Part shown: one piece after another, positions 1,087 to 30,946 of the stretch | Position numbering within the stretch: position 1 is the first letter of the stretch | How the letters are laid out: each line of letters starts with the position of its first letter | NCBI GenBank assembly: GCA_002412645.1 | Contig: DHVL01000020.1 | Coordinates: 1-35,963, forward strand | From: Candidatus Dojkabacteria bacterium UBA5209 | GTDB lineage: Bacteria > Patescibacteriota > Dojkabacteria > SC72 | Reading direction: 5' to 3' | DNA length: 35,963 nucleotides | Program-made: the position numbers and the translations under genes | The notes under the pieces: model-generated | What the model was told of the DNA's origin: nothing | The model's input: the letters and a program-made list of their open reading frames with translations, nothing else | Database searches by the model: none

Positions 1087-1108
1087 TACCTTAAAAATAA
1101 ATTTAATA

Positions 1109-2170
1109 TTAATAGTTAGCAGTCACAACTATTGTAGCAACCTGAGCATAACTACCTGCAGGTGTAGCACCAGATACTGATGCTAAATGGCACATAGTTG
1201 TCACATCGGAACTAATAGGGCCAGTAGCAGATGCAAACCGTTGAGCAGATGTACTTAATGCAGATGCTGGTTGTGAAGTACCAGTATCATTATCTGTACA
1301 AGCAGTATTTTGAACAATTGTTTGACCTGATTTAGAGGTACCAACTCCATACTCCTCAGCTCCTTTTACTACTGTACCACTAGCAGCATTAGCAATTGAG
1401 TTAACAGAATTTCTTAATTGACCATCAGCAACAATAGTTGAAAGATATCCATTCAAAGCATTCGTTGAAACTGTTACATTGTATTGACAAGTCTGTATAT
1501 ATGTAGAGGAAAGAACTCCAAGTGCACATGTATTAGAACTGATTACAACATCTAATGTAGGATCTACAGAAGCTGAGATATCAATCTGATCATCAGACAC
1601 TATCACTACAGCAGCGCTACCTGTATCACCAAATGTTCCTGTAATACCGATATCATATGTACCAGCTGATGCAGGATTGGTAATTTGGTTTATACCACCC
1701 GAAGCATGAGTACCAATTAATACTCTTACACATCTCCCTGCTGCAATCTCACCTGTTGTTGCATTTGTTGGAGCAGTTAGGGTAATTGTACCAGCACCAT
1801 TGTTAACAGCAACCCCCCAAACAGAGGCTCCTGCTGCTGATGCTAATGTTTTACTTGTAGGTGTACCTGTACAAACTCCAGTATTATATACAAGTAAATC
1901 AATATCCCCAAAAACAATATTAGTTAAACCAAAATTAGGAGAAGCAGTATTAAAACCTAATACAACTGTCTGAGATGCACTATTTACACCCGTAGGTGTT
2001 ACAAATTCAATTGTATGATTTGCAGCAACACCCTGCTGTATTCTACTTAATGTATCAGATATACCACTTAAAAATCCTGCGTTTGCATCTTTAGTGAAAT
2101 ATGTAATACCAATTGCAAATACAAAAATGCCTAGTAATATTGTAGGTAAAAAGAAAAATTTGTTTCTCAT
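1109..2170 (-). CDS. Secreted Thr/Ser/Gly/Ala-rich beta-rich protein (putative surface or fibre subunit)
   Basis: Signal peptide ends ...YFTKDANA. The protein has no other TM segment and a low-complexity, beta-prone composition. The C-terminal strand is AGSYAQVATIVVTANY. The central stretch VSTNALNGYLSTIV parallels SSGAAHGYVVTVY in 3146..3910. Confidence 0.5.
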   Translation of the reverse strand: MRNKFFFLPTILLGIFVFAIGITYFTKDANAGFLSGISDTLSRIQQGVAANHTIEFVTPTGVNSASQTVVLGFNTASPNFGLTNIVFGDIDLLVYNTGVCTGTPTSKTLASAAGASVWGVAVNNGAGTITLTAPTNATTGEIAAGRCVRVLIGTHASGGINQITNPASAGTYDIGITGTFGDTGSAAVVIVSDDQIDISASVDPTLDVVISSNTCALGVLSSTYIQTCQYNVTVSTNALNGYLSTIVADGQLRNSVNSIANAASGTVVKGAEEYGVGTSKSGQTIVQNTACTDNDTGTSQPASALSTSAQRFASATGPISSDVTTMCHLASVSGATPAGSYAQVATIVVTANY

Positions 2171-2219
2171 ATGTGTTTAATAATAAATATATCTATTTTA
2201 ATTTACCGATATAAGATTT

Positions 2220-3164
2220 CTAAGTCAAGCTTTTAGGCTTCTTTCTTAACAAAAAGATTATAAAAATTAAACATATTAATATGAGAGTACCCAAGAGATA
2301 AATATTGATATATACAAAGTAGAAAGGATTACTACTAGTTAGCACTTGGGCATTAACATCTTCAAAATACATATCATATATATCTACCTGTGCTTTGTAT
2401 ACACCAAAAATAGACTCACTCTCCCAAGATATTAGGCTATCACCAGTATAGAAACCGTATTCATCCATAATTACACGAGAGGACTGAGCGAGAATATTTT
2501 GTGGTACTAATTCTCTAAAATACTCTTTTTGAGTAATAATGTTTTTAATTTCTACTTTACCAAAGGATTTAATCTTTCTAAAACCAGTATTCTCAATCTC
2601 TAGTTTAAATTTAATAGGATTAAACATATTGAAACGATTACCACTAAACTCCTTAACTTGAGCTTGCATCTGAGGAAGAGCTCCATCCATTACAGAAATA
2701 AGCAGGGGTATTTCTATTGCACCAGATACTGCGGCTCCCCTCTGCTCTTCACTTGCTTTCTCTAGTGCAACAGTAAGGTAGTAATCTCCTAAACTTACAT
2801 CTTCGGGAATATCTACCACTATCTTCACTTTCTTTTCTGTATCTAGTTCAAAAGAGAACTCGTTAGGTTCAAAAGATATCCAATCTAGAGCAATCTCATC
2901 ATCCATGGAGGATGCAAATCTACCATACTCATCTAATATGTTTAGACCATATACCTTAAGTGTATATGGTTGACCTCCTGTTCCCCTTAGTACTATCTGA
3001 TGCTCTATTCTTTCTCCTGGTTTACTCTCTATTTCTAATATCGCAGGAAATATCTGGAAATCAATCGTATTAGCATATACCCCTCCCTTACTAAGAGTAA
3101 GTATTAAGAGTAGTACTAGTATCTGTAATATATATTTTTTCATATTTAAAATGTTCCTGTACAT
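2220..3164 (-). CDS. Tail-anchored cell-surface protein, CscA-like paralogue
   Basis: Has a signal peptide and an ectodomain starting FQIFPAILEIESKPGERIEHQIVL. A second half follows (GKVEIKNIITQKEY...ILAQSSRVIMDEY...GVYKAQVDI). The C-terminus is a TM helix plus RKKPKSLT. The layout matches 70..1086. Confidence 0.6.
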   Translation of the reverse strand: MYRNILNMKKYILQILVLLLILTLSKGGVYANTIDFQIFPAILEIESKPGERIEHQIVLRGTGGQPYTLKVYGLNILDEYGRFASSMDDEIALDWISFEPNEFSFELDTEKKVKIVVDIPEDVSLGDYYLTVALEKASEEQRGAAVSGAIEIPLLISVMDGALPQMQAQVKEFSGNRFNMFNPIKFKLEIENTGFRKIKSFGKVEIKNIITQKEYFRELVPQNILAQSSRVIMDEYGFYTGDSLISWESESIFGVYKAQVDIYDMYFEDVNAQVLTSSNPFYFVYINIYLLGTLILICLIFIIFLLRKKPKSLT

Positions 3165-3910
3165 CTAAAAACAATACCGTTACCGTAGTAACCGGAGTCT
3201 TGCATAGAACCAATATTAACTTTGTAATACAATCTTGCAGAAGAGCTACGAGTAACACCACTGTTTTGCATAATAGGTTGAGGATCTTCACCATTAGACA
3301 TATCTGCAAACTGCTTATACCCACTTGTAAAAGTTGCATCTGTACCTACTAGATTACTCATCCTATATCCAAATCCATATGTAGTACTTAATTCCCACAT
3401 ACCTGCTTGAGAGTATGTAATATCACTATTATCCCCAACTGTATCCTCTATATACTGCCCAGGAGTATCAAGATTCTCTAACTTCTTAGTCTCATATACA
3501 GTCACTACATACCCATGAGCAGCACCAGAGCTTACCACTAGGTCTGTATATGCCATTTGAGGAACATTGTTTACCAGTGAGCTGAAATTAAAACTAATAG
3601 GTGAATCTATCGTAAAACTAAAGGGTATTAAACTGTAGTAATATCCAAAACCAGCTAATATTTTGTAATTTTCAGAAGTATATACATCTGTGCCTAACTG
3701 TCCTCCTGTATCTACCATATAGAAGGATTCAGAAGAGGATGTATCTGCAAAGTTGTTTACAGTTCCCCATCCTAACTTAGCACTTTCACTAATAGCTTCA
3801 AATGAGTATGTACTGTTAGATGAGAGTAATACCAAAAGAAAAGAGATTAGAAATATTGGTAGTAGATACATATTTTTAAAGACTTTTGAGCTTTGAATAC
3901 CATTAATCAT
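3146..3910 (-). CDS. Secreted beta-rich protein (putative surface subunit)
   Basis: Has a signal peptide (LLVLLSSNSTYS) and an aromatic/Gly/Ser/Thr-rich sequence. It contains one W-x-L tripeptide (MWELSTTYGFGY) and ends YYGNGIVFRCTGTF. It overlaps the next gene by 19 nt. An alternative start at Met14 is possible. Confidence 0.5.
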   Translation of the reverse strand: MINGIQSSKVFKNMYLLPIFLISFLLVLLSSNSTYSFEAISESAKLGWGTVNNFADTSSSESFYMVDTGGQLGTDVYTSENYKILAGFGYYYSLIPFSFTIDSPISFNFSSLVNNVPQMAYTDLVVSSGAAHGYVVTVYETKKLENLDTPGQYIEDTVGDNSDITYSQAGMWELSTTYGFGYRMSNLVGTDATFTSGYKQFADMSNGEDPQPIMQNSGVTRSSSARLYYKVNIGSMQDSGYYGNGIVFRCTGTF

Positions 3911-4274: not shown

Positions 4275-4670
4275 ATGAAAAGAACAGTAATAATAGTAGT
4301 AATATCTATAATAGTAATACCAGTAGTAATACTAATATCACAAATACTACCAGCAAAAAGTGATGGACAACTTTACACCCCAATACAACAACCAGAGGTA
4401 CAAGAAGAAAGAGAGTACGAAACTAAAACAATACACATCTCTATAATAGGATACGCATACTCACCATCACAAGTAATCATAAACAAAGGTGATAGGGTGG
4501 TATGGACTAATCAAGATAGTGTAAGGCATGATGTAAATGGTGATGGTATAGAAGGCCCATTACTTTCAAAAGGAGAAACATTCAGCTATACATTCACAGA
4601 AGCAGGTACATACAACTATATATGTACACCACATCCATACATGAAAGGTTTAATCATTGTAGTTGAGTAG
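4275..4670 (+). CDS. Membrane-anchored type-1 blue copper protein, amicyanin-like cupredoxin
   Basis: Has an N-terminal TM anchor. An upstream His ligand candidate sits in DSVRHDV. The C-terminal ligand loop GTYNYICTPHPYMKGLIIVVE has Cys-x2-His-x2-Met spacing, as in amicyanin (CTPHPFM). Confidence 0.8.
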   Translation: MKRTVIIVVISIIVIPVVILISQILPAKSDGQLYTPIQQPEVQEEREYETKTIHISIIGYAYSPSQVIINKGDRVVWTNQDSVRHDVNGDGIEGPLLSKGETFSYTFTEAGTYNYICTPHPYMKGLIIVVE

Positions 4671-9713: not shown

Positions 9714-10304
9714 ATGTATTTAGTGATAACTGCCAATATACAAACGATTAAAAATATATTTAAATACACCTTTATATATACAATCCTAGGTATATACTTA
9801 CTTTGTAGTAAAGATATATATGCACAAGACATTCTTTACACACCACATCCTAATCTAGACTATATTGCTGTTAACAATGATGTCGTTGGTAAAGATCAAG
9901 AAGGATTCTTGAAGATATATAAACAGGATACTGTTAAGATTGCTGGTATTGGTTCTCCCAATGATACCGTTAAAATCTCTTTTGATGAGTATGAATATAC
10001 TGCTCATATGGATGAATATGGTAATTGGTTTGTAGTTTTCTCTGTGCAAGATTTAGAAAAAGGTAGCTACCCTGTCTCTATTCAGTTTAATGATGGTAAA
10101 CAGGAGCATCTTAATACTTTAGTCATACAAGGTGGTGATACTATGCAAGTTAGTGATTACAGTACTCCTCAGGAAGATACAGAAGAGGTTGTAGAAGAGA
10201 AAGAAGGTTTCAATACGATGTATATACCTATTGCGATATCAATTCCTGTTTTACTCGTTATTGGAGCTTTTAGTGGTATGTATATATCTAAGAGGAAGAA
10301 GTAG
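9714..10304 (+). CDS. Tail-anchored surface protein with one Ig-like domain
   Basis: Has a signal-like segment (YTILGIYLLCSKDIYAQ) and an Ig-like stretch VKIAGIGSPNDTVKISF...DEYGNWFVVFSV...GSYPVSIQF. An acidic linker follows, then a C-terminal TM helix plus KRKK. It sits immediately upstream of the giant gene with a 5-nt gap. Confidence 0.55.
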   Translation: MYLVITANIQTIKNIFKYTFIYTILGIYLLCSKDIYAQDILYTPHPNLDYIAVNNDVVGKDQEGFLKIYKQDTVKIAGIGSPNDTVKISFDEYEYTAHMDEYGNWFVVFSVQDLEKGSYPVSIQFNDGKQEHLNTLVIQGGDTMQVSDYSTPQEDTEEVVEEKEGFNTMYIPIAISIPVLLVIGAFSGMYISKRKK

Positions 10305-10309
10305 GGGTT

Positions 10310-13300
10310 ATGAATAAAAAGAAAGAAAATTTCTTGGTTTTAAAAATTGAGAGAAAAAAAATATTAAAATCTTTAGGAATAGTTCTCTTCGCGTTTTTCT
10401 TCTTTGGATATTTTGTTCTTGCCCAAAAAGATACAACACCTATTGCATATGCTGCTTGTAACTTAACATATTGTAAACAGCAGCCAAATGGTGCCTGTAC
10501 TGGTCCAAATGGATGCTTAGGAGATTGTCCTTGTGGAGGTAATCTCTACTGCTATTCGGGGTTTATATGTTGTGATAGGGGCCCTTGTATAAGCTGTGCG
10601 CCCCCCTCATGTGATGCTAATTATTCAGAAACATCAACCAGCTGTGGGTCATATAACGAAACATGTACAAAAAGGGATTGTCCAGGAGATGCTTGTGGTA
10701 CTAATACAAGAACCTGCTTCCTTGTTACCAAAACTGTTACATACAGTGCTAATGGGGGTAGTTGTAGTGTAGGTAGCCGTACTGTTTGTTACAATACCAC
10801 CTCTGCTTCTCCTGGCTGTACTAGAACAGGATACACATTAACTTCATATACACGTACATACCTAGAGTCAGGAGGAGGGGGAACCTTAAATACTTCTACA
10901 GGTGCCGTAACTAATGTTACTGGTCATCAAACAATACAGGCTAACTGGGCAATAAATACATATACAGTCTCATATCCTGGAAATGGAGGTACATGCGACC
11001 CAACATCTCGCGTAGTAAACTATGGCTCCGCTGCTGCTGCACCATCATGTACAAGAACGGGATATCATACAACAAGTTTTTCCATTACTAGTGGAGCTTG
11101 TGCTGGTACCTTCACTGCATCTACAGGAGCATGCAGTAGTGTTACACAAGCAATAACCATACAGCCTAACTGGGAATTAAGTAATCAAATACCAACTGCT
11201 CCAACAAATCTAAGAGTAGAAAATGCTGAAAATCCAGTAGGTATAACAGATACTACTCCAGAGTTTAAGGCTGAATTTCAAGACCCTGACATTGGAAATA
11301 CAGGTGTTTACTACCAAATACAAGTAAATACAAACTCTTCCTTTACTGGAACTACCATGTGGGACAGTGGTCAAACATCAATGCCTGCAACAGCGATAGG
11401 GGCATATAATAATCCTGACATAACATACGGTGCTACACCCCTTGCTCTAGATGGAGCTACCTACTACTGGAGGATTAGGTTTACAGACAACAATGGTGGT
11501 GTGGGAGCCTGGTCTGCTACTGCGAACTTTAAGATGAACAGTACACCTGGGCAACCATCAGGACTACAAGCAGAAGGAGCAAGCAACCCAATTGGCGTCA
11601 CAAATACAACACCCGAGTTTAGTGCAATTTTTAATGACTCAGATACAGGAGATACAGCCACTTACTATGAAATAGAGGTAAATACCAATTCCTCATTTAC
11701 TGGAACTGTAATGTGGGACAGTGGACAAACATCAATGACTGCTCTTGCAATTGGCTCTAGATCACCGGAGATCTCATATGCTGGAACAGCTTTAAGCTTA
11801 GATGGTACCACATACTACTGGAGAATTAGATTTACAGATAACAGAGGGACTGTAGGAGCTTGGTCTGCTACTGCTAACTTCACTATGAATACTCCGCCAT
11901 CAGCACCAACATCTCTACTTACTGAAGGAGTAAGTAATCCAACCAGAGTCATAGACACATATCCAGAATTTAGTGCAATATTTAATGACCCTAACGGAAG
12001 TGATACAGCAACAAAATATGATTTAGATGTAAATACCAATTCCTCCTTTACGGGAACAATGGTATGGAGTGCAAGTGATATACCAATGAGTGCAGTTTCC
12101 AATGGTGCTAGAACAGCAGATATCTCATATGCAGGTTCTACCCTTTCTTTAAATGGTACTACCTACTACTGGAGAATTAGATTTACTGACAATTACGGAA
12201 CTAAGGGAGTATGGTCTTCTACTGCTAATTTTAGAATGAATACACCTCCTAATGTACCAGGTTCGCTACAAACAGATGGGCAGATTAACCCAACGGGAAT
12301 TACCGATACAACTCCAATATTTAGTGCTCTACATACAGATCCAGATACAGATAGTGCAACACACTACCAAATACAAGTAAATACAAACTCTTCATTTACA
12401 GGGACTGTAATGTGGGAGAGTAACCAAACAGCAATGAGTACTACTGCGAACAACAGTAGAACTCCAGATATTACCTACAACGGTACTTCCCTTACCTTAG
12501 ACGGCTCTACCTACTACTGGAGAATGAGAGTATGGGACAGTAGTGGTACAGCAAGTGGATGGTCTGATACTGCTAACTTCCAAATGAATACAACTCCAGA
12601 TCAACCATATCAACTTCAAACAAACGGGTTAGAGGACCCTACTGCTTTACAAGATTTAACACCTGAATTTAGTGCAATATTTAATGATTCAGATATTTCT
12701 GATACAGCTACACATTACGAAGTAGAGGTTAATATAAATAATACATTTAGCGGAACTGTGATGTGGGATAGTAATAAGACGATATTTACTACTCCAGTAG
12801 TAAATGGAGGTAGAAGTGAACAGATACTGTACCAAGGAATACCATTAGAACAAAATGGTCAAACATTCTACTGGAGAATTAGATTGTGGGATTCAAATGA
12901 CACTCCAAGTGCATGGTCTCCTACTGCATCCTTTAGAATGTTAGATATTCCAGGAGCTGCTACAAATTTAACAGCAGTAGCTCTCTCTACCACATCAATA
13001 AGGTGGGAATTTGAGGATAATGCAACAGGAGAAGAGGGAGTAATGCTGTATGATGAAACAGATACTTTACAAAAAATCTGCATTGGTGAAAACCTTACCT
13101 TCTGTGTAGAAGAAAATCTAGATGAAAATACACAATATACAAGATATGCAGTTATTTACAACAGTGAAGCAGAAAGCCAACCATCTAATAGTGACAGTAT
13201 ATATACATTAATATCTACTCCTACACTACTTTTCTCTGGAGTAAAAACTGATACCTCAATTGGACTACTAAGTTCACAACCAGCAAACTCAGGAGAGCTT

Positions 13301-16300
13301 TACTTTGACTGTGTAGAAGGATGTGGAGACAATATTAATGTATGGACTTTAGACAATAATCCAACAGTTACTGCCTTACAAAACAACACCCCATATACCT
13401 TTAGAGTAAAAGCTAGAAATGGAGACAACGTAGAAAGTGCATACTCAGGCTCAACAATGATATATACCCAAACTCCAGTACCAACTCTTTCTGCAGGAGC
13501 TCTCTCTACTACATCAATCTCTCTTACTGCTTTGGGAGTAAACAATCTTTCTACAGGAGACTCTGGACTTTACTTTGAATGTACAGGTACAAGTTGTAAT
13601 AGTGGTATACAAGAATGGATTAAATCTACATCAGATGCAGTGATAGGTCTACAACCAAATACACAGTATACATTTAGAGTAAAAGCTAGAAACTTTGATG
13701 CTCAAGAAAGTGCTTACTCAACGGAGATAACAAAATATACACTAGCAGAGATACCATCACTTACCGATGTACACGCTACAAGCAGTACACAAATTTCTCT
13801 TAGAATATTAAGCGGCCTTAATCCATCTAATACAGAATTTTTAGTACAGGAAACAGTGACAGGTAAATACGTAAACCTAACAACAGGAGAACTACAACCT
13901 ACAGAAGATTGGCAATTAAATGGTACTCCCATTACAATCTCAGGACTTAATTCTGGTACCACATATACTTTCAAAGTAAAAGCTAGAAATGGAGAAAATA
14001 TTGAAAGTGACTTCTCCTCTTCTGCTTCTGCAACAACACTACTTTCATCAATTACAGCACTTACACCACAAGTAGATTCTAGTTCCCAAATTACTTGGAA
14101 GATATCTAGTCCTCAAGACAGTATCCTTGGAATTAAACTGTATGACAATGATGGGACTTTACTTAAAACATGTGTAGGAAGTGATATAACGGAGTGTACA
14201 GAGTCCTCTCTTTCTCCAAACACAACATATACAAGAAAATTTAGGGTATACAACAGTATTGCAGAGAGTGAATTTAGTAACAGTGTACCAGCAACTACAT
14301 TTGCTAATGTACCTGCTTTTGAAAGTATCTCTACTCAAGATTACACATCTGAGAGTGTTCTTTTGAAAGTAGATGTCAATGGTAATCCCTCTAATACTAC
14401 ATATTTAATTGTAGAAGAGAATACTAATAGATATTTCAATTCTGATATTGGGATATTACAAAATGATCCATACTACTCTACATATACTCAATTGGAAGAA
14501 AGTGAAGGAGCAACTGTGTACGGTCTCTCTCCAAACTCTGTTTACAGTTTTAAGATTAAGGCATTAAATTCTGATTCGGTAGAAAGTGCATACAGCTCGG
14601 CATTAGGATTTACTACTTTAGCAGCACAGCCAAGTGTAGTTTCTGTAAATGCAGTAGATAGTAGTAGCGTAAAAGTACTAATTAGTAATGGAGAGAACCA
14701 CTCTCTTACACAGTTTAGTCTAATTGAAACAAAGAGTAATCTTAATGTAAATAGTGGGACTAAGGTACTTGATACCAATGTACAATGGAAGCCATATCAA
14801 GACTTCGGTGGTAGTAGCGGTATAATACTTTCTAATCTACAACCTAATACACAATACTCATTCTGTGTAAAAGCAAGAAATTCTGAAAATATTGAAACAG
14901 GTTGTTCACAAGTAGTTTCTGCATATACATATGCTAAGAGTGCTTCACTAAGTACAAGAGTGGTTAACTCCTCAAGTATTGAAGTAAATGTAAACAAGAA
15001 TGGCAATCCTACAAATACTAGATATCAAATAATGGATACATTAACTAATGGGAATATTGATAACGATGGGAAATTTACAAGTAGTACAGTTTTACACAGT
15101 GACAGTAGAGTAAGTAGTAATTTCTTAATTACAAACTTACCTCCTAATACTACCTACTCCTTTAAGATTAGATCTGTTAACAGCGATACTTTGTATTCTG
15201 GATGGTCAGAGAATATCACAGTCACAACATGGGCAAATTCACCAAAAGACTTAGTTTTTGAAATAGTGGGAGGAAGTAGTGCAAGACTTAAGTTTGATAG
15301 GAATGGGAACCCATCTTCTACTAGATATGCAATACAAGAAAGTAATACTGGAAAATATGTAGACTACACAACCTCAAAATTGGTAGATAATGTGGTATGG
15401 GGTACATATACCTCTTGGGGTAATACTAATGGATTACTTATAACTTCACTTGATCCTGGGGCTCAATATCTATTTAGAATAAAGGCAATAAACAGTGCAA
15501 ATGTTGAAACAAACTTTGTAGAGGGTAATACAGGTAAAACATATTCGATAATATTGAATAAACCAGAGAGTATTAATACTGTATTAGCAGATAACACAAT
15601 TGTTGATGTAAGTAATATAGATGGAGCACAAACAGGAGAACAGAATATAAGAATCCTACAGGATGAATATATTGTTGCTGACATACCAATCTCTTTTGAA
15701 CAGAATAGAGATTGGAGTAATGTAATAATAGAGACTTCAATATTAGAAGGAAAAACTGTCATCAAATTAGATGATTCCCATGGTCTTACTGATAGCTTTA
15801 CAATGTATGTTGTAAAGAATGAAAAAGATAATAGCTTTAGAATATGCCCTCAAGCAAAGAGCTTGGAAGAAGTAAGTCCTACCTGTCCTCAAGGAGTCCT
15901 GTATACAGGAACTTTCCCAAAGAAATTAAAAGTTGAAAAAGAAGATGTGACAGTCTCACAAGCAGCAATCTCTGGAGTGACATACTGGATTGCGGATGGT
16001 ATTACAGGTACTGGGGGACAGGGAGAATATATTGAAGAGAGGAAACTAATTCCTACAACTAATTTTGTATCTCGTATTACTCAGTCTGTAGAAGGAGTTG
16101 TGACAACAGCCATGGACAGACTAGAAAATACAGCTTTAGGGAATATACCACAAGAGAATTTAACTACTGTTTCTGCAACAGCAACAGCAGTAACAGTTAC
16201 TGTTGGTTTAGCATCCCTACTCTCAGGTATGAGCCAAGTAGGATACGGTATCTCCCAGGTTGTTATCAATATTTTTAGTACTCTTGGTTTTAGAAGAAAG

Positions 16301-17068
16301 AGACATAGTGCGGGATATATATATGATTCAATTACAAGAGCACCAATACAGCAGGCAATAGTTAGAATATATGATCTTTCAAAGAAATTAATAGATACAA
16401 GTGTGACAGATGGATATGGATACTTTAGAACATCTGTACCTTCTGGAGAGTATATTTTGGATATTAAGAAAAGAGATTATACATTCCCATCATCTCTAAT
16501 ACTTGGCAAAGAGGATTACCCATTAACAGATATATATCATGGTGAAAAGATTTATATTAAAGAGGGAGATACGAATATTGTAGTACCTCTCGACCCAGAG
16601 ACAGATATTTCTACAAAGAGAATAGTTACAATATTTAGAAGTCTCTTTTCTTCTCTACTTCCAATATTAAACATTGTACTTTTTGTAGGAGGAGCATTAG
16701 TAGCTTTGTATGTATATCAGAAAGATAGTAATTTAGTAAATCTCTTAATCTTACTTCTTTACATACCTACTACATATCTTGTACTAAAAAATATCTTCAA
16801 CCTTAGGGAGAGATATGGGAAGGTAGAATATACAGATGGTAAACCAGCAGTAAACATCACTCTACATCTTAAAGAGAAAGACTTTGACAAGGTTGTAGCA
16901 AAAAGAGTTACAGATAGTAAGGGTAGATACTCTTTTGATATTTTGGAGAAGGGTGAATATGTAATAGAGAGTGCAGATACAGGGATAAAGATTGTAGATG
17001 GAGAAGTACAAATTCTTGCAAAGAAAAAAGAAAGTGTATATAATAGGCTTATAGTAGAGAAAGTATAG
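10310..17068 (+). CDS. Giant (2252 aa) multidomain surface/adhesin-like protein
   Basis: Uninterrupted ORF with an N-terminal signal anchor. A ~90-aa region holds more than 20 Cys. Two Listeria-Bacteroides-repeat-like units follow (TVTYSANGG...RTGYTL...IQANW and YTVSYPGNGG...RTGYHT...IQPNW). Then come five ~117-aa tandem repeats, about nine FN3-like domains (Y-[ST]-F-[RK]-[VI]-K-A-[RL]-N...ES.[YF]S), and a C-terminal TM/CarboxypepD_reg-like module. Confidence 0.9.
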   Translation: MNKKKENFLVLKIERKKILKSLGIVLFAFFFFGYFVLAQKDTTPIAYAACNLTYCKQQPNGACTGPNGCLGDCPCGGNLYCYSGFICCDRGPCISCAPPSCDANYSETSTSCGSYNETCTKRDCPGDACGTNTRTCFLVTKTVTYSANGGSCSVGSRTVCYNTTSASPGCTRTGYTLTSYTRTYLESGGGGTLNTSTGAVTNVTGHQTIQANWAINTYTVSYPGNGGTCDPTSRVVNYGSAAAAPSCTRTGYHTTSFSITSGACAGTFTASTGACSSVTQAITIQPNWELSNQIPTAPTNLRVENAENPVGITDTTPEFKAEFQDPDIGNTGVYYQIQVNTNSSFTGTTMWDSGQTSMPATAIGAYNNPDITYGATPLALDGATYYWRIRFTDNNGGVGAWSATANFKMNSTPGQPSGLQAEGASNPIGVTNTTPEFSAIFNDSDTGDTATYYEIEVNTNSSFTGTVMWDSGQTSMTALAIGSRSPEISYAGTALSLDGTTYYWRIRFTDNRGTVGAWSATANFTMNTPPSAPTSLLTEGVSNPTRVIDTYPEFSAIFNDPNGSDTATKYDLDVNTNSSFTGTMVWSASDIPMSAVSNGARTADISYAGSTLSLNGTTYYWRIRFTDNYGTKGVWSSTANFRMNTPPNVPGSLQTDGQINPTGITDTTPIFSALHTDPDTDSATHYQIQVNTNSSFTGTVMWESNQTAMSTTANNSRTPDITYNGTSLTLDGSTYYWRMRVWDSSGTASGWSDTANFQMNTTPDQPYQLQTNGLEDPTALQDLTPEFSAIFNDSDISDTATHYEVEVNINNTFSGTVMWDSNKTIFTTPVVNGGRSEQILYQGIPLEQNGQTFYWRIRLWDSNDTPSAWSPTASFRMLDIPGAATNLTAVALSTTSIRWEFEDNATGEEGVMLYDETDTLQKICIGENLTFCVEENLDENTQYTRYAVIYNSEAESQPSNSDSIYTLISTPTLLFSGVKTDTSIGLLSSQPANSGELYFDCVEGCGDNINVWTLDNNPTVTALQNNTPYTFRVKARNGDNVESAYSGSTMIYTQTPVPTLSAGALSTTSISLTALGVNNLSTGDSGLYFECTGTSCNSGIQEWIKSTSDAVIGLQPNTQYTFRVKARNFDAQESAYSTEITKYTLAEIPSLTDVHATSSTQISLRILSGLNPSNTEFLVQETVTGKYVNLTTGELQPTEDWQLNGTPITISGLNSGTTYTFKVKARNGENIESDFSSSASATTLLSSITALTPQVDSSSQITWKISSPQDSILGIKLYDNDGTLLKTCVGSDITECTESSLSPNTTYTRKFRVYNSIAESEFSNSVPATTFANVPAFESISTQDYTSESVLLKVDVNGNPSNTTYLIVEENTNRYFNSDIGILQNDPYYSTYTQLEESEGATVYGLSPNSVYSFKIKALNSDSVESAYSSALGFTTLAAQPSVVSVNAVDSSSVKVLISNGENHSLTQFSLIETKSNLNVNSGTKVLDTNVQWKPYQDFGGSSGIILSNLQPNTQYSFCVKARNSENIETGCSQVVSAYTYAKSASLSTRVVNSSSIEVNVNKNGNPTNTRYQIMDTLTNGNIDNDGKFTSSTVLHSDSRVSSNFLITNLPPNTTYSFKIRSVNSDTLYSGWSENITVTTWANSPKDLVFEIVGGSSARLKFDRNGNPSSTRYAIQESNTGKYVDYTTSKLVDNVVWGTYTSWGNTNGLLITSLDPGAQYLFRIKAINSANVETNFVEGNTGKTYSIILNKPESINTVLADNTIVDVSNIDGAQTGEQNIRILQDEYIVADIPISFEQNRDWSNVIIETSILEGKTVIKLDDSHGLTDSFTMYVVKNEKDNSFRICPQAKSLEEVSPTCPQGVLYTGTFPKKLKVEKEDVTVSQAAISGVTYWIADGITGTGGQGEYIEERKLIPTTNFVSRITQSVEGVVTTAMDRLENTALGNIPQENLTTVSATATAVTVTVGLASLLSGMSQVGYGISQVVINIFSTLGFRRKRHSAGYIYDSITRAPIQQAIVRIYDLSKKLIDTSVTDGYGYFRTSVPSGEYILDIKKRDYTFPSSLILGKEDYPLTDIYHGEKIYIKEGDTNIVVPLDPETDISTKRIVTIFRSLFSSLLPILNIVLFVGGALVALYVYQKDSNLVNLLILLLYIPTTYLVLKNIFNLRERYGKVEYTDGKPAVNITLHLKEKDFDKVVAKRVTDSKGRYSFDILEKGEYVIESADTGIKIVDGEVQILAKKKESVYNRLIVEKV
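11192..12940 (+). repeat. Five in-frame tandem repeats, period about 351 nt (~117 aa), inside the giant CDS
   Basis: The recurrent block is NP.G[IV]TDTTPEFSAIFND.D..DTAT.Y.[IV].VNTNSSFTGTVMWDSGQTSM...G.R.P.I.Y.G..L.LDG.TYYWRIRF.DN.G..GAWS.TANF.MNT.P. The YYWR codons recur near 11465, 11815, 12166, 12515 and 12870. Nucleotide identity is high enough that spurious antisense ORFs end in the same ...LLSVNLILQ. Confidence 0.9.
12941..15540 (+). repeat. Array of about nine divergent FN3-like domains inside the giant CDS
   Basis: The signatures are YTRYAVIYNSEAESQPS, YTFRVKARNGDNVESAYS, YTFRVKARNFDAQESAYS, YTFKVKARNGENIESDFS, YTRKFRVYNSIAESEFS, YSFKIKALNSDSVESAYS, YSFCVKARNSENIETGCS, YSFKIRSVNSDTLYSGWS and YLFRIKAINSANVETNF. 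They recur at spacings of roughly 90-100 aa. Confidence 0.8.
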
Positions 17069-17099: not shown

Positions 17100-19091
17100 A
17101 TGATAGAGAAAGCCTCTAGAGCAATAGAATTTGCTACAGCAGCATCCTTAGTTGGTTCTTCAATAGCTGGATGTTCACCAACTCCTAATAGCCAATCCAC
17201 ATACGAAAACACCCCTATTCCTAAGGAACCAAGTGCAGCTGAGATCGTAGACAGTAACATTGAAGACATTAGCTATCATACAGAAAGAATTGATACCCAA
17301 GCTCAAGAGAGAGTTGAAGAAAAAAATGAGATACCTGAATTTTTTGCAGAACAAAAAGCTTTTGATTTTGAGATATTAAATATCTCTGATTGGAGTAATT
17401 TTGAATTAGAGGAAATAGAAGAGAAAGAAGCTGGATATGGTATTGATGTGACAAAGGAAACCTCTATGTTCATGATTCCACTTAAAAGTGATAACTTCTT
17501 TGATGACAAGAAAGAGGTGAAAGAGATTCTAGCCCCAAGTGGAAGCACTTTTGAGATAGCAGAAGTTAGAACACTCGTTGGTCCTAAAGGAGAAAAGATT
17601 AAGATAGGTAATATTGCGAATACCTACGGGGCTAATGTTCTTTCTACAGTTGTTTTAGAAGCTGAAGATAGTAATGGAATAAAAGAAGTATTTACAGAAG
17701 AAAGAGAGAGAAATGAAAAAACTGTCTCATACGTTGCAACAGAAGATTTCATATATCCAAACAAAGTCGAAAATATCTTACTTGCTCTAAGAAATATATC
17801 CTCTTTTCAGGAAGAAAACGGAGGTTTAAAAAAAGGAGAAGAGTATTCATATATAGATATGGTTGGATTAAAAGAGAAGAGCTACGAATATAGAAGTGGT
17901 TTAACCTCTACTGGAGGAATTGTTAGAGGTGGTGGTGTTTGTGCTATATCTACAGGTGTTTCTTCCTTAATACATGTTCAGGATTCAGATGAGTACAAAG
18001 TTTTAGAAAGATGGGCAGAACCAGAAAGATACTTTCAAGGACCCTTTAGTCCTTCAGAATATATCGTAGACTCAAGCGTTGACTATAATGAATCGAATAC
18101 TTACGACCTTAGATGGATACAGGGGGAGGATAAATATATACATATTAATATATTTCTCTCTCCTTCAGATATTCCTTTTGAACAAACAAATCAAGATGGT
18201 GTAGGAGGAATTTCTGATGTAATAATGGTTGTATCACTTTCATTCGAAGACAATGCACAAGAGGATCAAACGGAGTATATATCTGAAATATTAAGACAGT
18301 ATGAAGGGTATAGAGATTCCAATCATGCAACAAAGCTAAACCCCTTACAAATGGAGGTAAATATTCTTAATCATCCCGTTAGTCCAGAAATTTTTGATGC
18401 TATAGAACTCCTCTATAATGTAGAAGATATTAGAGAATTTGAGACAAGAATTGAAGAGAAAGTTGACTTCCAAAACATACTTAAATTACAAGAAGCAGTT
18501 AACAGTTACGATGAAGAATCTGGAATTCCTTTGAAAATATATCTCAAGGAAACAGAGTGGTATAAACAGTTTAAAGACGAAGAGAGTCAGAAAAATGCAG
18601 ATAGGATACTGCAATTAGCAACGATTAGTAGAGTCCCAGGACAGCCTTTACAGTGTGTAGGGTTTGTAATGGTTGCCTCATGGCTATACCCAGAGCTCTC
18701 TATTCCATACGTTGGTGGTGCTCAAGTAACAACTGCAAGAGAGTTAGTACCGCCCGAACTTAGAGGATACAATTACAGTGAGGTTCGTAGATGGTATACC
18801 AACTATGGAGGTTCAGTAGCTCTTGGAGGGAAATTAACTATTGATATGTATGAACCAGGAGATTTGTTCATTAGAACAGATGGAGCAAAAGCTGCTTCAA
18901 CACAAAAACCAACAGGTCATATAGGATTCATAATGGATAAAATTGTAAAAGAAAATGGAGAAATAGTACTACTCGTTGCAGATTCTAATAGATACAACGA
19001 TGGGAAGATAAGAGTCTTTACTGTAGATGAAAGTAATATGGAAGAAGTTCTTGGAACAACACAAAGATATCTTGTAAGATCTTCGAATTAA
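17100..19091 (+). CDS. Putative lipoprotein with VanW-like and C-terminal CHAP/NlpC-P60-like cysteine peptidase domains
   Basis: Lipobox-like SSIAGC follows a short basic N-terminus. The VanW-like core is KKGEEYSYIDMVG...GGIVRGGGVCAISTGVSS...VDYNESNTYDLRWIQGEDKYIHINI. The C-terminal papain-like pair is PLQCVGFVMVASW and PTGHIGFIMDK...LLVADSN. Confidence 0.55.
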   Translation: MIEKASRAIEFATAASLVGSSIAGCSPTPNSQSTYENTPIPKEPSAAEIVDSNIEDISYHTERIDTQAQERVEEKNEIPEFFAEQKAFDFEILNISDWSNFELEEIEEKEAGYGIDVTKETSMFMIPLKSDNFFDDKKEVKEILAPSGSTFEIAEVRTLVGPKGEKIKIGNIANTYGANVLSTVVLEAEDSNGIKEVFTEERERNEKTVSYVATEDFIYPNKVENILLALRNISSFQEENGGLKKGEEYSYIDMVGLKEKSYEYRSGLTSTGGIVRGGGVCAISTGVSSLIHVQDSDEYKVLERWAEPERYFQGPFSPSEYIVDSSVDYNESNTYDLRWIQGEDKYIHINIFLSPSDIPFEQTNQDGVGGISDVIMVVSLSFEDNAQEDQTEYISEILRQYEGYRDSNHATKLNPLQMEVNILNHPVSPEIFDAIELLYNVEDIREFETRIEEKVDFQNILKLQEAVNSYDEESGIPLKIYLKETEWYKQFKDEESQKNADRILQLATISRVPGQPLQCVGFVMVASWLYPELSIPYVGGAQVTTARELVPPELRGYNYSEVRRWYTNYGGSVALGGKLTIDMYEPGDLFIRTDGAKAASTQKPTGHIGFIMDKIVKENGEIVLLVADSNRYNDGKIRVFTVDESNMEEVLGTTQRYLVRSSN

Positions 19092-24887: not shown

Positions 24888-26447
24888 ATGGTTAATATTG
24901 AGTCTGAAGATATATATACAGGAGAAATACCCCCAAACAAGGAAATTGCTCGTCCTGAATATGATGTAATCGATAAGGTTAAGGATATAATGGATTCTAC
25001 TTGTGACTCTAGACTCACAATAGACATGGTTAGGGATGAGTTTGGTAAAAATTTTGGAGCATTATACCCAGAAGAACAGAAATTCATTGTACACGCACTA
25101 CACTGGTTAATGCCTACAGTAAAATCTAATAAACGAAGAATATGTGAATATAACTCTCTCTCATACATGTCTCATATCTGTGATGAACCTGAATTGGCAT
25201 ATGAATATGCAAAAAAATCTACAGATTTGGTTTTAAATACTCCTATAGATTCAGATCCTACAAAGCAGTATGAATCTTGGGAAGATACTAGAGAAAACAA
25301 TCTCACTCAACATATACTTGCTCTTCAAAATTGTGTCTATACAAACTATGAAGAAGGAGCACATAAAATAGCATCAAAAATATCTTCCAATTTTTTAACA
25401 ACTTTTAAAGCATCTGACATCCCTATTCCCGAAGAACCTGCAAGCTATTACTCAGAAGATAAAACCCCTGCCAAAGTTTGGAGATATCGTTCTTTTCTTT
25501 TTAATAAAGATACGCTAAATCCAGAAATAATTCCTACCTTTGGTGACCAATATACTGTTTATCAAATATTTAAAGCTGTCTTCCCAACTACACAAACTTC
25601 CTATGAATTTACTGATGGTACTAGATATTTTCATATTAAGAAAGAAATAACAGATCTCTCTAGGAAGATATTAATACAAATGGCAAAAGATTTAGATAAA
25701 GAAAATAATTGGTATTTAAGTAAGTTCTTCTGGGAAGGCTCAAATGCATATAGAGAGATGATATTGAATGATAAAGAGATAATGGATTCTCTTTCTGATA
25801 TGAATAAATCTCTACTGTATTCTCTTTCATATTTTAATAAGGAAGATGCAGAATGGAAAGTCCAAGATATTCCAAAGAGTTTGAAACTTGAATACTTAAA
25901 TAAAGCCCTTAAACTTACTAATAATATAAAAGATGATTCTTTTAGGGCAAACACATTACTTTCGCTAGTAGCTCCACTAAAAGAAGAAGATAATATTAAT
26001 TTAATAAAAGAAATATTAGTAGAAACTAAAGAGATATCTGAAAATATATCTAACCCTTATGAGACTTTCCGTATAAAAAGGAAAATCGCACGAGGATGGA
26101 AATATATTGGAGAGATAGAGAAAGCTTCAGAAGTCACAATAGAGATTGTTAGGGATACAATGGAGGGTTTTGATTCTAGTAGATCTCAAGTAAATGCTTT
26201 ATATATTCTCGCGGAGTTCTCAAAGAGAGAGATAGGGAATAAGGAACTAGCATATACTCTTGCTTGGCATGCAGTTCAGATACTTGTATTTGAGAGATTT
26301 CATAAACATCCTGAAATTGATCATACTTTAAAGGACTTCCATTTTTATGAACTTGTTAAGATATTAAGAGGTTCTGAGTACTTCACTAAAGCAAGAGATC
26401 TATTTTATGATTTCTCTCATATGAAATTAAGAAAGGGAGAAGAATAA
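24888..26447 (+). CDS. Hypothetical cytoplasmic protein (519 aa), no recognisable motif
   Basis: Long uninterrupted ORF with coding-like composition and no TM segment or signal peptide. It is predicted helical by eye. The start is uncertain. Confidence 0.6.
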   Translation: MVNIESEDIYTGEIPPNKEIARPEYDVIDKVKDIMDSTCDSRLTIDMVRDEFGKNFGALYPEEQKFIVHALHWLMPTVKSNKRRICEYNSLSYMSHICDEPELAYEYAKKSTDLVLNTPIDSDPTKQYESWEDTRENNLTQHILALQNCVYTNYEEGAHKIASKISSNFLTTFKASDIPIPEEPASYYSEDKTPAKVWRYRSFLFNKDTLNPEIIPTFGDQYTVYQIFKAVFPTTQTSYEFTDGTRYFHIKKEITDLSRKILIQMAKDLDKENNWYLSKFFWEGSNAYREMILNDKEIMDSLSDMNKSLLYSLSYFNKEDAEWKVQDIPKSLKLEYLNKALKLTNNIKDDSFRANTLLSLVAPLKEEDNINLIKEILVETKEISENISNPYETFRIKRKIARGWKYIGEIEKASEVTIEIVRDTMEGFDSSRSQVNALYILAEFSKREIGNKELAYTLAWHAVQILVFERFHKHPEIDHTLKDFHFYELVKILRGSEYFTKARDLFYDFSHMKLRKGEE

Positions 26448-28052: not shown

Positions 28053-28057
28053 TAAAA

Positions 28058-28130
28058 TGGGTGTACAGGGATTCGAACCCTGAACCTAACGGTTAAGAGC
28101 CGTTTGCTCTACCAATTGAGCTATACACCC
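28058..28130 (-). tRNA. tRNA-Lys (anticodon CUU)
   Basis: The minus strand reads GGGTGTA-TA-GCTC-AATTGGTA-GAGC-A-AACGG-CTCTTAA-CCGTT-AGGTT-CAGGG-TTCGAAT-CCCTG-TACACCC-A. This gives a canonical cloverleaf with anticodon loop CT-CTT-AA. No CCA is encoded. Confidence 0.93.
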
Positions 28131-28178
28131 AGGTTCAAACAAAGAATAATACCAGTAGACAAGAGATTTTTCAATACA

Positions 28179-30257
28179 TTACTCTTTTAAAAGAATATCC
28201 CTAGTAATTAATGTCTCCTTTCTAGTAAACACCTCATTACCATCCTCAATGTCCTCTACTACATAATTACGATCCAATATCTCAATATAATATCTACCCT
28301 CACCAACAAAAAACCTGTATCTACCCATAGAATCAGTAACCCTTTTAGCTACAATCTTGTCAAACTCAGCCTCTCTCAAACCAACAGCAACACCCTCCAC
28401 CCTATTCCCCTGCGTATCCTTAACAACACCATAGATATCCCTACTAAAGAATATATTACGAAGAACAAGGAAGAATGTTGGAACAAACAGAAGTAAAACA
28501 ATCAATGAAAGAGAAGTAGGATTACTGTAATAAGTGTAGAAAGCCAAAGTTAAACCAACTAAGAAAAGAAGAATATGTAAAAGATGAACAATGAATTTAG
28601 TTCTAGTCCAAAAAGCCTCTAACCTTACTCTCAACTGAGACTCCTCTAAAGGATCTAAAGGAATAGAGAAATTAATCTCTCTGTTTTCCCCAACCTCAAA
28701 CACCTCACCATGATACACATTTGTAATAGGGGCATCATCCTTACCAAACACAACCTTAGAAGGAAACTCATACCTAGAAGCCCTCACCTCCAACCTGTAT
28801 CTGCCAGACTTTAACCTCGCAGTAAAATACCCATTGCCATCTGTTACATCAGTCCATACCATGTGCTCCTCTTCATCATATATTCTAATAATAGCTTGAG
28901 CAATAGGGGCTTTGCTTACTGAATCATATACATACCCAACAGGCTTTGCTCCCTTTCTAAAGCCAAGTAATGAAAGAAGATTTAAGAATAGCTGAAGGAG
29001 AAAGTAAGGAACTGTTGCAAAAGTACCAGCAGCAACAACAATAGCTGAAGTAGCAGTCACAACAGAAGTAGCAGTAGTTACTCTCTCCAAGTCAGAAGGA
29101 TCTAATTTACCAACAGTATCATCTAAGATAACGGTAATATCATCAATAACCTTCTCAATATCATTTACAACAGGTGGAGGAGGAGTTACAGGAATAGGAG
29201 GTTTCTCCTCTTCTACCTCCTCAAGAGGGATATTTAAAATAATATCGCAGTACCTAATCACATTACCAGCAACATCATCTGCCTCTACACAGAACTTATA
29301 ACTCTCTCTCAAATATATATCAGAAACCTTCTCTAAATCCCCTAACTTAATCTTCACAGTTAACAAATCTCCTTCCAAAGAGTAGTTGTTTGTACAAGTC
29401 TCTAAATCACCTCCAGAACTAAGACAGAAAAACTTAGCCTCATTTAACTGCAAGTTATCTGTCACCCTAATTAAAAAAATTAATTCATAGTTAGGATCCC
29501 ACTCTGTAGTAGTATTCTCACCAATATTACCCATATCCAAAACCTCAATAGAAGGAGCCTGAGCATCTTGAACACTATAAGTAATATTAGACCACGCACT
29601 AAGACCACCATATGGATTCTGAGCCCTTACTCTGTAAAAATACATCTTACCATTCTCTAAATTAGTAAATTCAAAAGAAGTACTAGTCATATACCCAGCC
29701 TCAGCCTTAACACTTCTAAAATCAGAAAACTCACTAACCTGTACATTGTATTTGTAATTAGCACCCAAACTCTCCCACATAACCATATTGGTAAAACCTT
29801 TCGTATATTGAGGCTCAGGAAGCATAGTTGGTACAGGAACAGGAACAACATACAAAGTATTACAATTTTGGATAAAAATATCATACCCAAAAGTAGTATC
29901 CTTAGCACAAACAGTATATGTACCAGGAACAGTAGAAGAAACAGAACCAAAAGCCCTACCAGTAGCATCAGTTAAAGCAAGAGGTTGAACTACATCTAAA
30001 CCAGTACCATATATCACAATCTGCCTACCAGGAATACCTACTCCACTAGGAGAAAGAACCCTTACTTCAACATTACTAGGTTGATATATCTCAACAGTAT
30101 TAGGACTTACAGAAACAGTGGAATATAAATCAACATTAATATATGCACTAACTGTCACAGAATCATTACTAGGATCTAGCTGTGCATAAACAGAAGGTAC
30201 AAAAAGAAATATAGCTAGAAAAACAATCACACTTGTTAAGGCAGTTTTAATTTTCAT
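28179..30257 (-). CDS. Surface protein (692 aa): Big-like plus FN3 plus Ig-like ectodomain with the same C-terminal membrane module as the giant protein
   Basis: Has a signal peptide (FLFVPSVYAQ) and an invasin-type Ig stretch (VEVRVLSPSGVGIPGRQIVIYG...TDATGRAFGSVSSTVPGTYTV). An FN3 domain follows (YKYNVQVSEF...KMYFYRVRAQNPYGGLSAWS), then a PPIPVTPPPP linker. The C-terminal about 300 aa are homologous to residues ~1950-2252 of the 10310..17068 product. Confidence 0.85.
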   Translation of the reverse strand: MKIKTALTSVIVFLAIFLFVPSVYAQLDPSNDSVTVSAYINVDLYSTVSVSPNTVEIYQPSNVEVRVLSPSGVGIPGRQIVIYGTGLDVVQPLALTDATGRAFGSVSSTVPGTYTVCAKDTTFGYDIFIQNCNTLYVVPVPVPTMLPEPQYTKGFTNMVMWESLGANYKYNVQVSEFSDFRSVKAEAGYMTSTSFEFTNLENGKMYFYRVRAQNPYGGLSAWSNITYSVQDAQAPSIEVLDMGNIGENTTTEWDPNYELIFLIRVTDNLQLNEAKFFCLSSGGDLETCTNNYSLEGDLLTVKIKLGDLEKVSDIYLRESYKFCVEADDVAGNVIRYCDIILNIPLEEVEEEKPPIPVTPPPPVVNDIEKVIDDITVILDDTVGKLDPSDLERVTTATSVVTATSAIVVAAGTFATVPYFLLQLFLNLLSLLGFRKGAKPVGYVYDSVSKAPIAQAIIRIYDEEEHMVWTDVTDGNGYFTARLKSGRYRLEVRASRYEFPSKVVFGKDDAPITNVYHGEVFEVGENREINFSIPLDPLEESQLRVRLEAFWTRTKFIVHLLHILLFLVGLTLAFYTYYSNPTSLSLIVLLLFVPTFFLVLRNIFFSRDIYGVVKDTQGNRVEGVAVGLREAEFDKIVAKRVTDSMGRYRFFVGEGRYYIEILDRNYVVEDIEDGNEVFTRKETLITRDILLKE

Positions 30258-30260
30258 CCT

Positions 30261-30875: not shown

Positions 30876-30946
30876 GGTAGATTACAGGCTACTAAAATAT
30901 TGTTAAGGCAAGGTAATCAAACAGACCTGGGGTAAAATACTTAATT

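Follow-up and report, generated by a model that had tools for sequence, protein, structure and literature searches.

A lineage-wide C-terminal module of Dojkabacteria surface proteins as a predicted multi-pass membrane anchor with two transthyretin-like sandwiches

How do bacteria of the Patescibacteria, or Candidate Phyla Radiation (CPR), keep their large surface proteins on the cell? These organisms are thought to live attached to host cells, with their large surface proteins as the foremost candidates for recognising the host; to our knowledge, there is essentially no account of how such proteins are held. The question is raised by a locus of Candidatus Dojkabacteria bacterium UBA5209, a stretch of 35,963 nucleotides (nt) of contig DHVL01000020.1 (assembly GCA_002412645.1) that we refer to as the window. 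A first-pass annotation had pointed to two otherwise different surface proteins in the window, one of them giant, that seemed to end in the same membrane module of ~300 amino acids (aa), and had listed an anchor, a secretion or sorting tag, and a transmembrane signalling device as its possible roles. We find that hundreds of adhesin-like proteins across the Dojkabacteria lineage carry this module as their tail. Among the three roles we favour the anchor and argue against a cleaved sorting tag; more specifically, we hold it reasonably probable that the module is a C-terminal anchor cassette, of stop-transfer and multi-pass type, whose cytoplasmic domains serve as a "stopper" or for docking. The two genes, as defined by the list of open reading frames (ORFs), their translations and Pfam, are the following.

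10310..17068, plus strand: gene of the giant surface protein, 2252 aa
28179..30257, minus strand: gene of the 692-aa surface protein

Both proteins start with a signal-peptide-like N-terminus (MNKKK...SLGIVLFAFFFFGYFVLAQKD in the giant protein, MKIKTALTSVIVFLAIFLFVPSVYAQ in the 692-aa protein). In the giant protein this start is followed by a Cys-rich head, Listeria-Bacteroides repeats, five Rha78A-type Ig domains (Ig_Rha78A_N, 4.8e-82, 5 stretches), many fn3 domains (at least 8; fn3, 4.3e-31, 8 stretches) and the C-terminal module, and in the 692-aa protein by a Big_1-like domain, one fn3 domain, a third beta domain, a linker and the module. By Pfam, the N-terminal cargo parts of the two proteins differ. 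The Cys-rich head (aa ~48-170, window 10450..10830; CNLTYC...CTGPNGCLGDCPCGG...CCDRGPCISCAPPSC...) has no Pfam assignment and contrasts with the C-terminal module, where Cys is near absent (0.1-0.2%).

Upon aligning the last ~330 aa of the two proteins with BLASTP, we obtained 99 identities over 239 positions (41%; 63% positives, 2 gaps, E=3e-62); the formal alignment, which had been named beforehand as a possible refutation, is thus significant. A six-frame tblastn search of the whole window with either tail returned the other tail alone (E~1e-57 to 1e-59; runner-up E>0.3). The similarity is therefore far beyond chance, with exactly two copies in the window, and these values rule out a chance or low-complexity origin. 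The shared membrane module on two otherwise different exported proteins accordingly stands, and the four peptide pairs that had been quoted for it occur verbatim in the translations of both ORFs. The 5' boundary given for it was slightly short: by profile alignment, the module covers aa 1920-2252 of the giant protein (window 16067..17065) and aa 364-691 of the 692-aa protein (28185..29168).

We derived the anatomy of the module from 82 full-length family members aligned to its profile and from an AlphaFold2 (AF2) model built on a 25-sequence alignment (mean predicted local distance difference test, pLDDT, 84.5; predicted template-modelling score, pTM, 0.52). The order of parts is an acidic amphipathic pre-helix, hydrophobic region 1, an Arg/Lys cluster, beta-sandwich 1, a transmembrane (TM) hairpin, a second Arg/Lys cluster and beta-sandwich 2. 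Region 1 itself consists of two halves, h1a and h1b. In the window these parts lie as follows.

16067..16162, plus strand: giant protein, acidic amphipathic pre-helix or linker, aa 1920-1951, predicted outside the membrane (profile positions 1-27)
16163..16291, plus strand: giant protein, hydrophobic region 1, aa 1952-1994, with h1a (22-mer), junction and h1b (18-mer) (profile alignment)
16292..16306, plus strand: giant protein, basic cluster RRKRH, stop-transfer-like (family positions 71-73 are 88-91% Lys/Arg)
16307..16606, plus strand: giant protein, beta-sandwich 1, aa 2000-2099 (PF13620; AF2 strands at pLDDT 82-96; Foldseek)
16634..16804, plus strand: giant protein, TM hairpin, aa 2109-2165, loop YQKDSNL (two robust TM helices; AF2 pLDDT 84-96)
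16814..17065, plus strand: giant protein, beta-sandwich 2, aa 2169-2252, up to the protein end (PF13620, best stretch 2170-2240)
29088..29168, minus strand: 692-aa protein, acidic amphipathic pre-helix, aa 364-390 (profile alignment, periodicity)
28959..29087, minus strand: 692-aa protein, hydrophobic region 1, aa 391-433, with h1a VTTATSVVTATSAIVVAAGTFA, junction VP-Y and h1b YFLLQLFLNLLSLLGF
28944..28958, minus strand: 692-aa protein, basic cluster RKGAK (profile alignment)
28641..28943, minus strand: 692-aa protein, beta-sandwich 1, aa 439-539 (PF13620, E=3.4e-17, best stretch 441-497; AF2)
28443..28613, minus strand: 692-aa protein, TM hairpin, aa 549-605, loop YSNPTS (profile alignment, hydrophobicity, AF2)
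28185..28433, minus strand: 692-aa protein, beta-sandwich 2, aa 609-691 (SdrD_B and CarboxypepD_reg, 612-661; AF2 pLDDT 87-94)

The pre-helix displays a hydrophobic periodicity peak at 3.6 residues and a family net charge of about -1.7, and AF2 predicts it to be a helix. The segment behind it had been described as Thr/Ala/Val-rich, hydrophobic and followed by basic residues, which is correct and can be refined to ~43 aa in two halves that meet at a conserved Pro-Tyr junction. Across the family, h1a is an uncharged, Thr/Val/Ala/Ser/Gly-rich 21-22-mer, the junction reads [S/G][S/Q]-L-[P]-Y (with Pro in 48% of members and Ser, Ala or Gly otherwise), and h1b carries a polar stripe at positions 59/63/66/69, the first of which is 94% polar and 19% charged. 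When examined as a possible in-plane amphipathic helix, h1b gave a hydrophobic moment (muH) of 0.25 (z 0.76). AF2 draws region 1 as two helices, H24-50 and H52-67, broken at the junction. Both halves are marginally hydrophobic, with median summed insertion energies (dG) of +2.6 and +5.2, whereas the helices of the TM hairpin reach -0.2 and -0.8; all of these values are a crude sum of Hessa-scale central-position values rather than the output of the full predictor. The hairpin helices also have KD19 values of 2.3 and 2.4, with KD19>=1.6 in 95-96% of members, and they enclose a loop of 6-8 aa and are followed by the second basic stretch (..KR.KYG).

Sandwich 1 comprises ~100 aa and belongs to CarboxypepD_reg, with a conserved insertion, FPS...DYP..N.YHGE...IPLDP, that contains residues invariant across members only 25-36% identical; sandwich 2 comprises ~85 aa and ends the protein. 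The CarboxypepD_reg-like nature that had been suspected for both globular pieces was confirmed by PF13620, which scored 52.2 bits on the giant tail and 63.9 bits on the 692-aa tail (cutoff 32.3), with two stretches in each, and which matched 25/25 diverse members (best E=4e-21). In the AF2 model, in which the sandwiches and the hairpin have a pLDDT of 82-96, both pieces are all-beta domains that Foldseek matches to transthyretin-like seven-strand beta-sandwiches, with template-modelling scores (TM-scores) to the target of 0.70-0.79 for CnaB2 (8bdw) and the transthyretin-like domain of carboxypeptidase D (5aq0); SdrD B was matched as well. As judged from profiles and models, both sandwiches are members of the CarboxypepD_reg/transthyretin-like superfamily. 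They are also homologous to each other (hhalign probability 98%, E 1e-12 to 5e-14), and because their alignment continues N-terminally past the basic cluster to take in the helix before it (h1b-RKK-S1 with TMc-KR-S2), the module contains a duplicated unit of helix, basic cluster and sandwich. Between region 1 and the TM hairpin, hhalign detected no homology (probability 1%).

Within sandwich 1 (16307..16606 and 28641..28943), we observed a near-invariant Lys (TKEP), an invariant Asp (IPxDP) and a conserved YHGE motif. With CnaB/SpaA isopeptide-type domains the sandwich shares fold similarity and SpaA/SdrD_B matches that range from sub-threshold to threshold. Since these residues are conserved and CnaB2, the TIE protein and pilins are among the closest structures in the PDB, it is conceivable that sandwich 1 may hold an intradomain isopeptide-like lock.

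How far does the module extend beyond the two window proteins? An exhaustive hidden Markov model (HMM) search with a ten-sequence profile against 1.84 billion cluster representatives gave 7652 matches at E<=1e-3 and 1236 at E<=1e-30; compared with it, k-mer-indexed homologue searches, which returned 10-18 matches only, were of little use for distribution. A whole module (>250 profile positions) was present in 129 of the 160 proteins retrieved, without exception at the very C-terminal end (median distance 2 residues), in proteins of 275-3662 aa, and the modules share a median pairwise identity of 34%, down to 25%. Signal-peptide-like N-termini, basic and then hydrophobic, were found in 79 of 104 Met-starting members. 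Among 30 representatives, Pfam identified the cargo as fn3 (16), DUF2341 (9), Ig_Rha78A_N (7), Laminin_G_3 (3), Gly_rich_2 (3) and Big_1 (3), next to NHL/SBBP propellers, cadherin-like domains and a beta-helix, so by its Pfam content the cargo consists of adhesin-type extracellular domains. About 20 strong profile matches belong to another class, namely giant proteins in which 14-56 CarboxypepD_reg repeats stand in tandem (P0012-P0014 and about 17 others; 2000-6300 aa, Lys/Arg 2.9%), whose architecture is unrelated to the module and which we used only as an extracellular same-fold control.

In a scan of one genome per GTDB species we found 63 module loci, nearly all of them labelled Dojkabacteria/WS6 or as a generic Patescibacteria or "uncultured Saccharibacteria" metagenome-assembled genome, with one "Microgenomates". 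For one distant member (P0039, 3474 aa), the BipA protein of its genome is closest to named Dojkabacteria proteins. The expectation of further cargo proteins is therefore borne out by the 1236 strong matches and their varied adhesin-type cargo, and a restriction to two paralogues is ruled out by the same matches, the 129/160 whole modules and the 63 genome loci; the labels recovered are essentially Dojkabacteria and do not show a spread across the CPR. At least eight assemblies besides the window carry two module genes on one contig (L001, L005, L014, L066, PHAO01000001.1 with L006 and L053, Ga0209728_1000019, Ga0209373_10000326 and, in adjacent positions, L065), so genomes carry at least two such genes, and the number of clusters suggests more than two. 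In L065 (7854..15704), the adjacent genes encode distant members of 480 and 2047 aa with nearly identical modules, each with a ~75-aa charged, acidic-ended C-terminal extension (…DDMHEDFYDLDSID) past sandwich 2.

Both window genes are conserved genes and not recent duplicates. Orthologues of the giant protein, with 60-62% identity over 1750-1965 aa, occur in L053, L110 and P0024, and orthologues of the 692-aa protein (680-734 aa) occur at ~100 loci in the genome and metagenome scans. The latter is a syntenic core gene of Dojkabacteria. In the window it belongs to a minus-strand block (28179..35963) with SecA, a 163-aa Zn-ribbon-like acidic protein, two GT4 genes, Bac_transf (an initiating sugar transferase) and RecO; its SecA-to-RecO neighbours are kept in 34-56 of the 63 Dojkabacteria loci, and on its other side 32-40 loci have a radical SAM gene, UDG and NDK. 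The sugar-transferase genes beside this core surface protein could serve envelope or protein glycosylation. A tRNA-Lys (CTT) gene, the only tRNA gene of the window, lies directly downstream of the 692-aa gene (28057..28131, minus strand).

On which side of the membrane do the sandwiches lie? The first-pass annotation had argued from the positive-inside rule that they could be cytoplasmic, a case that holds across the 82 members while remaining a prediction. The flank before region 1 has a net charge of -1.7 and the flank after it a net charge of +2.8, with 3.7 Lys plus Arg residues (K+R), and for the TM hairpin K+R amounts to 3.1 before it, 0.7 in its loop and 3.5 after it. In total, ~10 Lys/Arg residues flank the TM segments on the sandwich side versus ~2 on the cargo side. 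Under the positive-inside rule, this asymmetry would place the cargo outside and both sandwiches inside, and because two robust TM helices lie between them, the sandwiches would share one side.

The amino acid composition provides independent support. K+R makes up 5.0% of the cargo over 754 cargo windows (maximum 15%) and 2.9% of 571 extracellular same-fold repeats, compared with 15.4% in the cytoplasmic housekeeping proteins of the same loci. For sandwich 1 the value is 10.8% (near the 96th percentile of the cargo windows) and for sandwich 2 it is 17.7%, a median that no cargo window reaches. The same holds within single proteins: 19% in sandwich 2 against 5.3% in the cargo of the giant protein, and 16.9% against 6.1% in the 692-aa protein. 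A composition classifier (cross-validated accuracy 0.98) assigned sandwich 2 to the cytoplasm-like class in 94% of members, and did so for sandwich 1 in 37%. In distant members, the tails past sandwich 2 are charged, Glu/Lys/Arg/Gln-rich and of low complexity, which likewise points to the cytoplasmic side. From charge distribution and composition together, we predict that both sandwiches are likely cytoplasmic.

Several observations weigh against this placement. Region 1, at ~43 aa, is long enough to cross the membrane twice, is broken at Pro or at a Ser/Ala/Gly junction, is drawn by AF2 as two helices, and is only marginally hydrophobic in each half. Long hydrophobic stretches with a central turn residue such as Pro can form helical hairpins, as described in turn-propensity work, and a hairpin at this point would put the sandwiches outside with the cargo. 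The module would then be an anchor of four spans, with both sandwiches outside as a membrane-proximal stalk base that perhaps binds the cell wall or S-layer, and with only two tiny loops facing the cytoplasm. Such an arrangement would also agree with the usual location of the fold, since sandwiches of the CarboxypepD_reg, CnaB and SdrD-B types found by Foldseek are typically extracytoplasmic, and with the intermediate composition of sandwich 1; two equivalent hairpin-plus-sandwich units would fit the way in which h1b-RKK-S1 aligns with TMc-KR-S2. Moreover, the pTM of the AF2 model is only 0.52, and we identified no cytoplasmic partner, the neighbours of module genes being housekeeping or glycosylation genes.

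We nevertheless consider the outside arrangement the less likely one, on several grounds. It would require ~10 Lys/Arg residues in three TM-flanking clusters to be translocated while the cytoplasmic loops hold ~0.9, which would strongly violate the positive-inside rule. Sandwich 2 would be an extracellular domain with K+R above all 754 cargo windows and ~6x that of extracellular repeats of the same fold. Furthermore, polar position 59 and the RKK cluster enclose only ~11 apolar residues of h1b, a short length for a membrane span, and the flanks of region 1 are opposite in net charge, whereas those of the true TM hairpin are both basic.

Could the module instead be a sorting or secretion tag that a dedicated machine, with the logic of a sortase, an exosortase or a type IX secretion system (T9SS), recognises and then removes or processes? 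Its invariant position at the extreme C-terminus of varied exported cargo is shared with LPXTG/sortase, PEP-CTERM and PGF-CTERM signals, and it starts like such a tripartite signal, with a small-residue/Thr-rich stretch, a hydrophobic segment and a basic cluster. The likeness to an LPXTG ending stops there: after the hydrophobic region and RKK cluster come ~260 more conserved residues, with two well-conserved folded domains and two TM helices, to a total of ~330 aa, whereas known sorting tags have at most 40 aa or are a single beta domain of ~80-100 aa without TM helices. The T9SS C-terminal domain is of this second kind, a single beta-sandwich without TM helices, as opposed to the two robust TM helices and region 1 of the module, and no match to the Por_Secre_tail type was found in Pfam or NCBIfam at E<=1. 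A signature motif is lacking too. In agreement with the earlier statement that no sortase signal is present, an LP.[TSA][GAS] regular expression matched neither protein, and an NCBIfam scan of both tails gave only sub-threshold domain-level matches (NikL, 29 bits versus a cutoff of 100) and no PEP-CTERM or PGF-CTERM model. Neither did the neighbourhood comparison reveal a dedicated protease or transporter gene beside module genes, a companion that had been suggested as a thing to look for: conserved neighbours are housekeeping or glycosylation genes and the general SecA, and those of the 692-aa gene are RecO, the sugar transferases, SecA, radical SAM, UDG and NDK. Given its size, its conserved folds and the absence of a signature motif, of an NCBIfam sorting signal and of a linked processing gene, a cleaved tag is very improbable.

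The safest statement, which we make with high confidence, is that the module would act as a stop-transfer membrane anchor for Sec-exported surface proteins. In the mechanism that we propose, the N-terminal signal peptide would send the long, acidic, Lys/Arg-poor cargo across the membrane until transfer is halted by the amphipathic pre-helix, hydrophobic region 1 and the Arg/Lys cluster. Beta-sandwich 1 would remain in the cytoplasm and fold there, the two strongly hydrophobic helices would insert as a hairpin with the 6-8-residue loop outside, and beta-sandwich 2 would fold in the cytoplasm too. The outcome would be a three-crossing tether in which h1b is interfacial or packed in the bundle. 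Such a tether might act as a mechanically secure "rivet", with two folded inner-face domains that would be impossible to drag through the bilayer, and conserved sandwich surfaces, including the loop of sandwich 1, may dock a partner or each other.

Retention in the membrane can be had for less. Two other putatively exported ORFs of the same window, at 9714..10304 and 2220..3164, end in a plain TM segment and a basic tail (...IGAFSGMYISKRKK and ...IFIIFLLRKKPKSLT, respectively), and because such plain anchors exist, the extra ~260 aa of the module presumably do more than retain a protein. One tentative possibility, to which we give a minor share of our belief, is that the cytoplasmic sandwiches form a docking platform that would couple the giant-adhesin repertoire to an intracellular partner, or to each other via the pre-helix, as a CPR-specific outside-in system. 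Such a system would be analogous to the coupling seen with integrins or the mycoplasma terminal organelle, and its building block would be a fold that otherwise serves outside cells. A separate reading, in which ectodomain binding or tension is passed through the helices to the cytoplasmic sandwiches and alters a partner interaction, after the model of integrin-like or mycoplasma-adhesin-like outside-in coupling or clustering, would draw on the same topology evidence as the anchor and on the same plain TM anchors that argue for a function beyond retention. In its favour, the conserved amphipathic pre-helix runs into h1a, and the highly conserved loop insertion of sandwich 1, with residues invariant across divergent members, suggests a binding surface on that domain. 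On the other hand, we recognised neither an enzymatic nor an output domain in the module, identified no partner for it and found no conserved regulator among the neighbouring genes, and ectodomain and module show no clear difference in conservation within orthologues. As conservation is the sole positive evidence, we regard signalling as quite improbable.

An anchor with folded cytoplasmic domains would have functional analogues in other systems. The retention modules of giant RTX adhesins (LapA and MpIBP type) are N-terminal and plug a TolC-like outer-membrane pore during type 1 secretion in diderm bacteria; they too would tether a very long adhesin by a folded inner-side domain, but the module studied here is C-terminal, integral to the cytoplasmic membrane as predicted, and unrelated in sequence. 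Mycoplasma cytadhesins, integrins and cadherins have a single span and mostly unstructured tails. Like module proteins, they combine a large ectodomain with a C-terminal span and a cytoplasmic part able to couple inside, and the mycoplasma likeness may extend to reduced genomes and a host-attached lifestyle; the module differs in its three or four membrane helices, its two folded sandwiches and the lack of a known cytoskeletal partner. It belongs neither to these adhesins nor to the RTX retention modules. Transthyretin-like sandwiches attached to a TM helix also occur in NOMO (of the BOS complex) and EMC7, which gave weak matches at the level of both sequence and fold (NOMO2 9c7v_B, E=6e-11, confined to one domain; 9c7u_B by Foldseek; NOMO1-like Pfam matches in 9/25 members). 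These are eukaryotic, lumenal in the endoplasmic reticulum and have a single C-terminal TM segment, and the likeness is confined to one sandwich (whole-model TM-score normalised to the query, TMq, <=0.25).

Comparison with described families led to the same separation of parts and whole. PF13620 and PF13715, as well as SdrD_B (PF17210) and SpaA/CnaB (PF17802), have the fold of the sandwiches, whose models superpose at a TM-score of 0.7-0.79. However, the CarboxypepD_reg families describe a single soluble, usually extracellular domain, whereas the module holds two copies between membrane helices, each after an Arg/Lys cluster, with 4-6x the Lys/Arg of extracellular repeats of this fold and with the family-specific insertion in sandwich 1. 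No entry covering the composite was found among Pfam, NCBIfam, and PDB sequences and folds: the profile matched single domains only in PDB sequences, and the whole model reached at best TMq 0.25 in Foldseek. Within these databases, the single-domain matches rule out an already described anchor family, an outcome that had been named beforehand as a possible refutation. The match of BCHF (PF07284) to the TM hairpin (E 0.003-0.008, below cutoff) was taken as hydrophobic-composition noise. NCBI labels the relatives "carboxypeptidase-like regulatory domain-containing protein" or "hypothetical". Full-text literature searches found no description of the module, and a preprint on giant genes (10.1101/2023.11.21.568195), which is about Omnitrophota, does not mention it. 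The composite module is apparently undescribed, while C-terminal membrane anchoring of surface proteins is already known in kind.

Other genes of the window include further candidates for the cell surface. The 196-aa ORF at 9714..10304 (plus strand), with its signal peptide and its C-terminal TM segment and SKRKK tail, has no Pfam match and is not conserved in the other loci examined; it ends 5 nt before the giant gene and is probably co-transcribed with it. Downstream of the giant gene by 32 nt, a 663-aa protein (17100..19091, plus strand) has a weak VanW-like match (E 1.6e-4, below cutoff), a lipoprotein-like N-terminus (..SSIAGCSP) and homologues in only 3 other loci. Four consecutive ORFs at 70..3910 (minus strand; 338, 353, 314 and 254 aa) have signal-peptide-like N-termini and no Pfam match; between the first and the third there is distant paralogy (23% identity, E 1e-8), the third has a TM segment and an RKKPK tail at its end, and the group looks like a small surface-protein or pilus-like cluster. 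The window further encodes a 131-aa plastocyanin/azurin-type cupredoxin (4275..4670, plus strand) and, among conserved housekeeping genes, a 519-aa ORF (24888..26447, plus strand) with no Pfam match and no homologue in related loci.

Such large surface proteins have been reported in another lineage (PMC13059738). For Dojkabacteria, the module profile provides a sequence handle by which the anchored surface proteome can be listed straight from metagenomes, and because only the two sandwiches are recognised at present, the module is a candidate for a curated Pfam or NCBIfam model. It would also be a likely, testable case of a normally extracellular beta-sandwich fold being used on the cytoplasmic side of the membrane. 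Should the sandwiches have a binding partner, the module would offer an entry point into the cell-surface organisation of this uncultured lineage.

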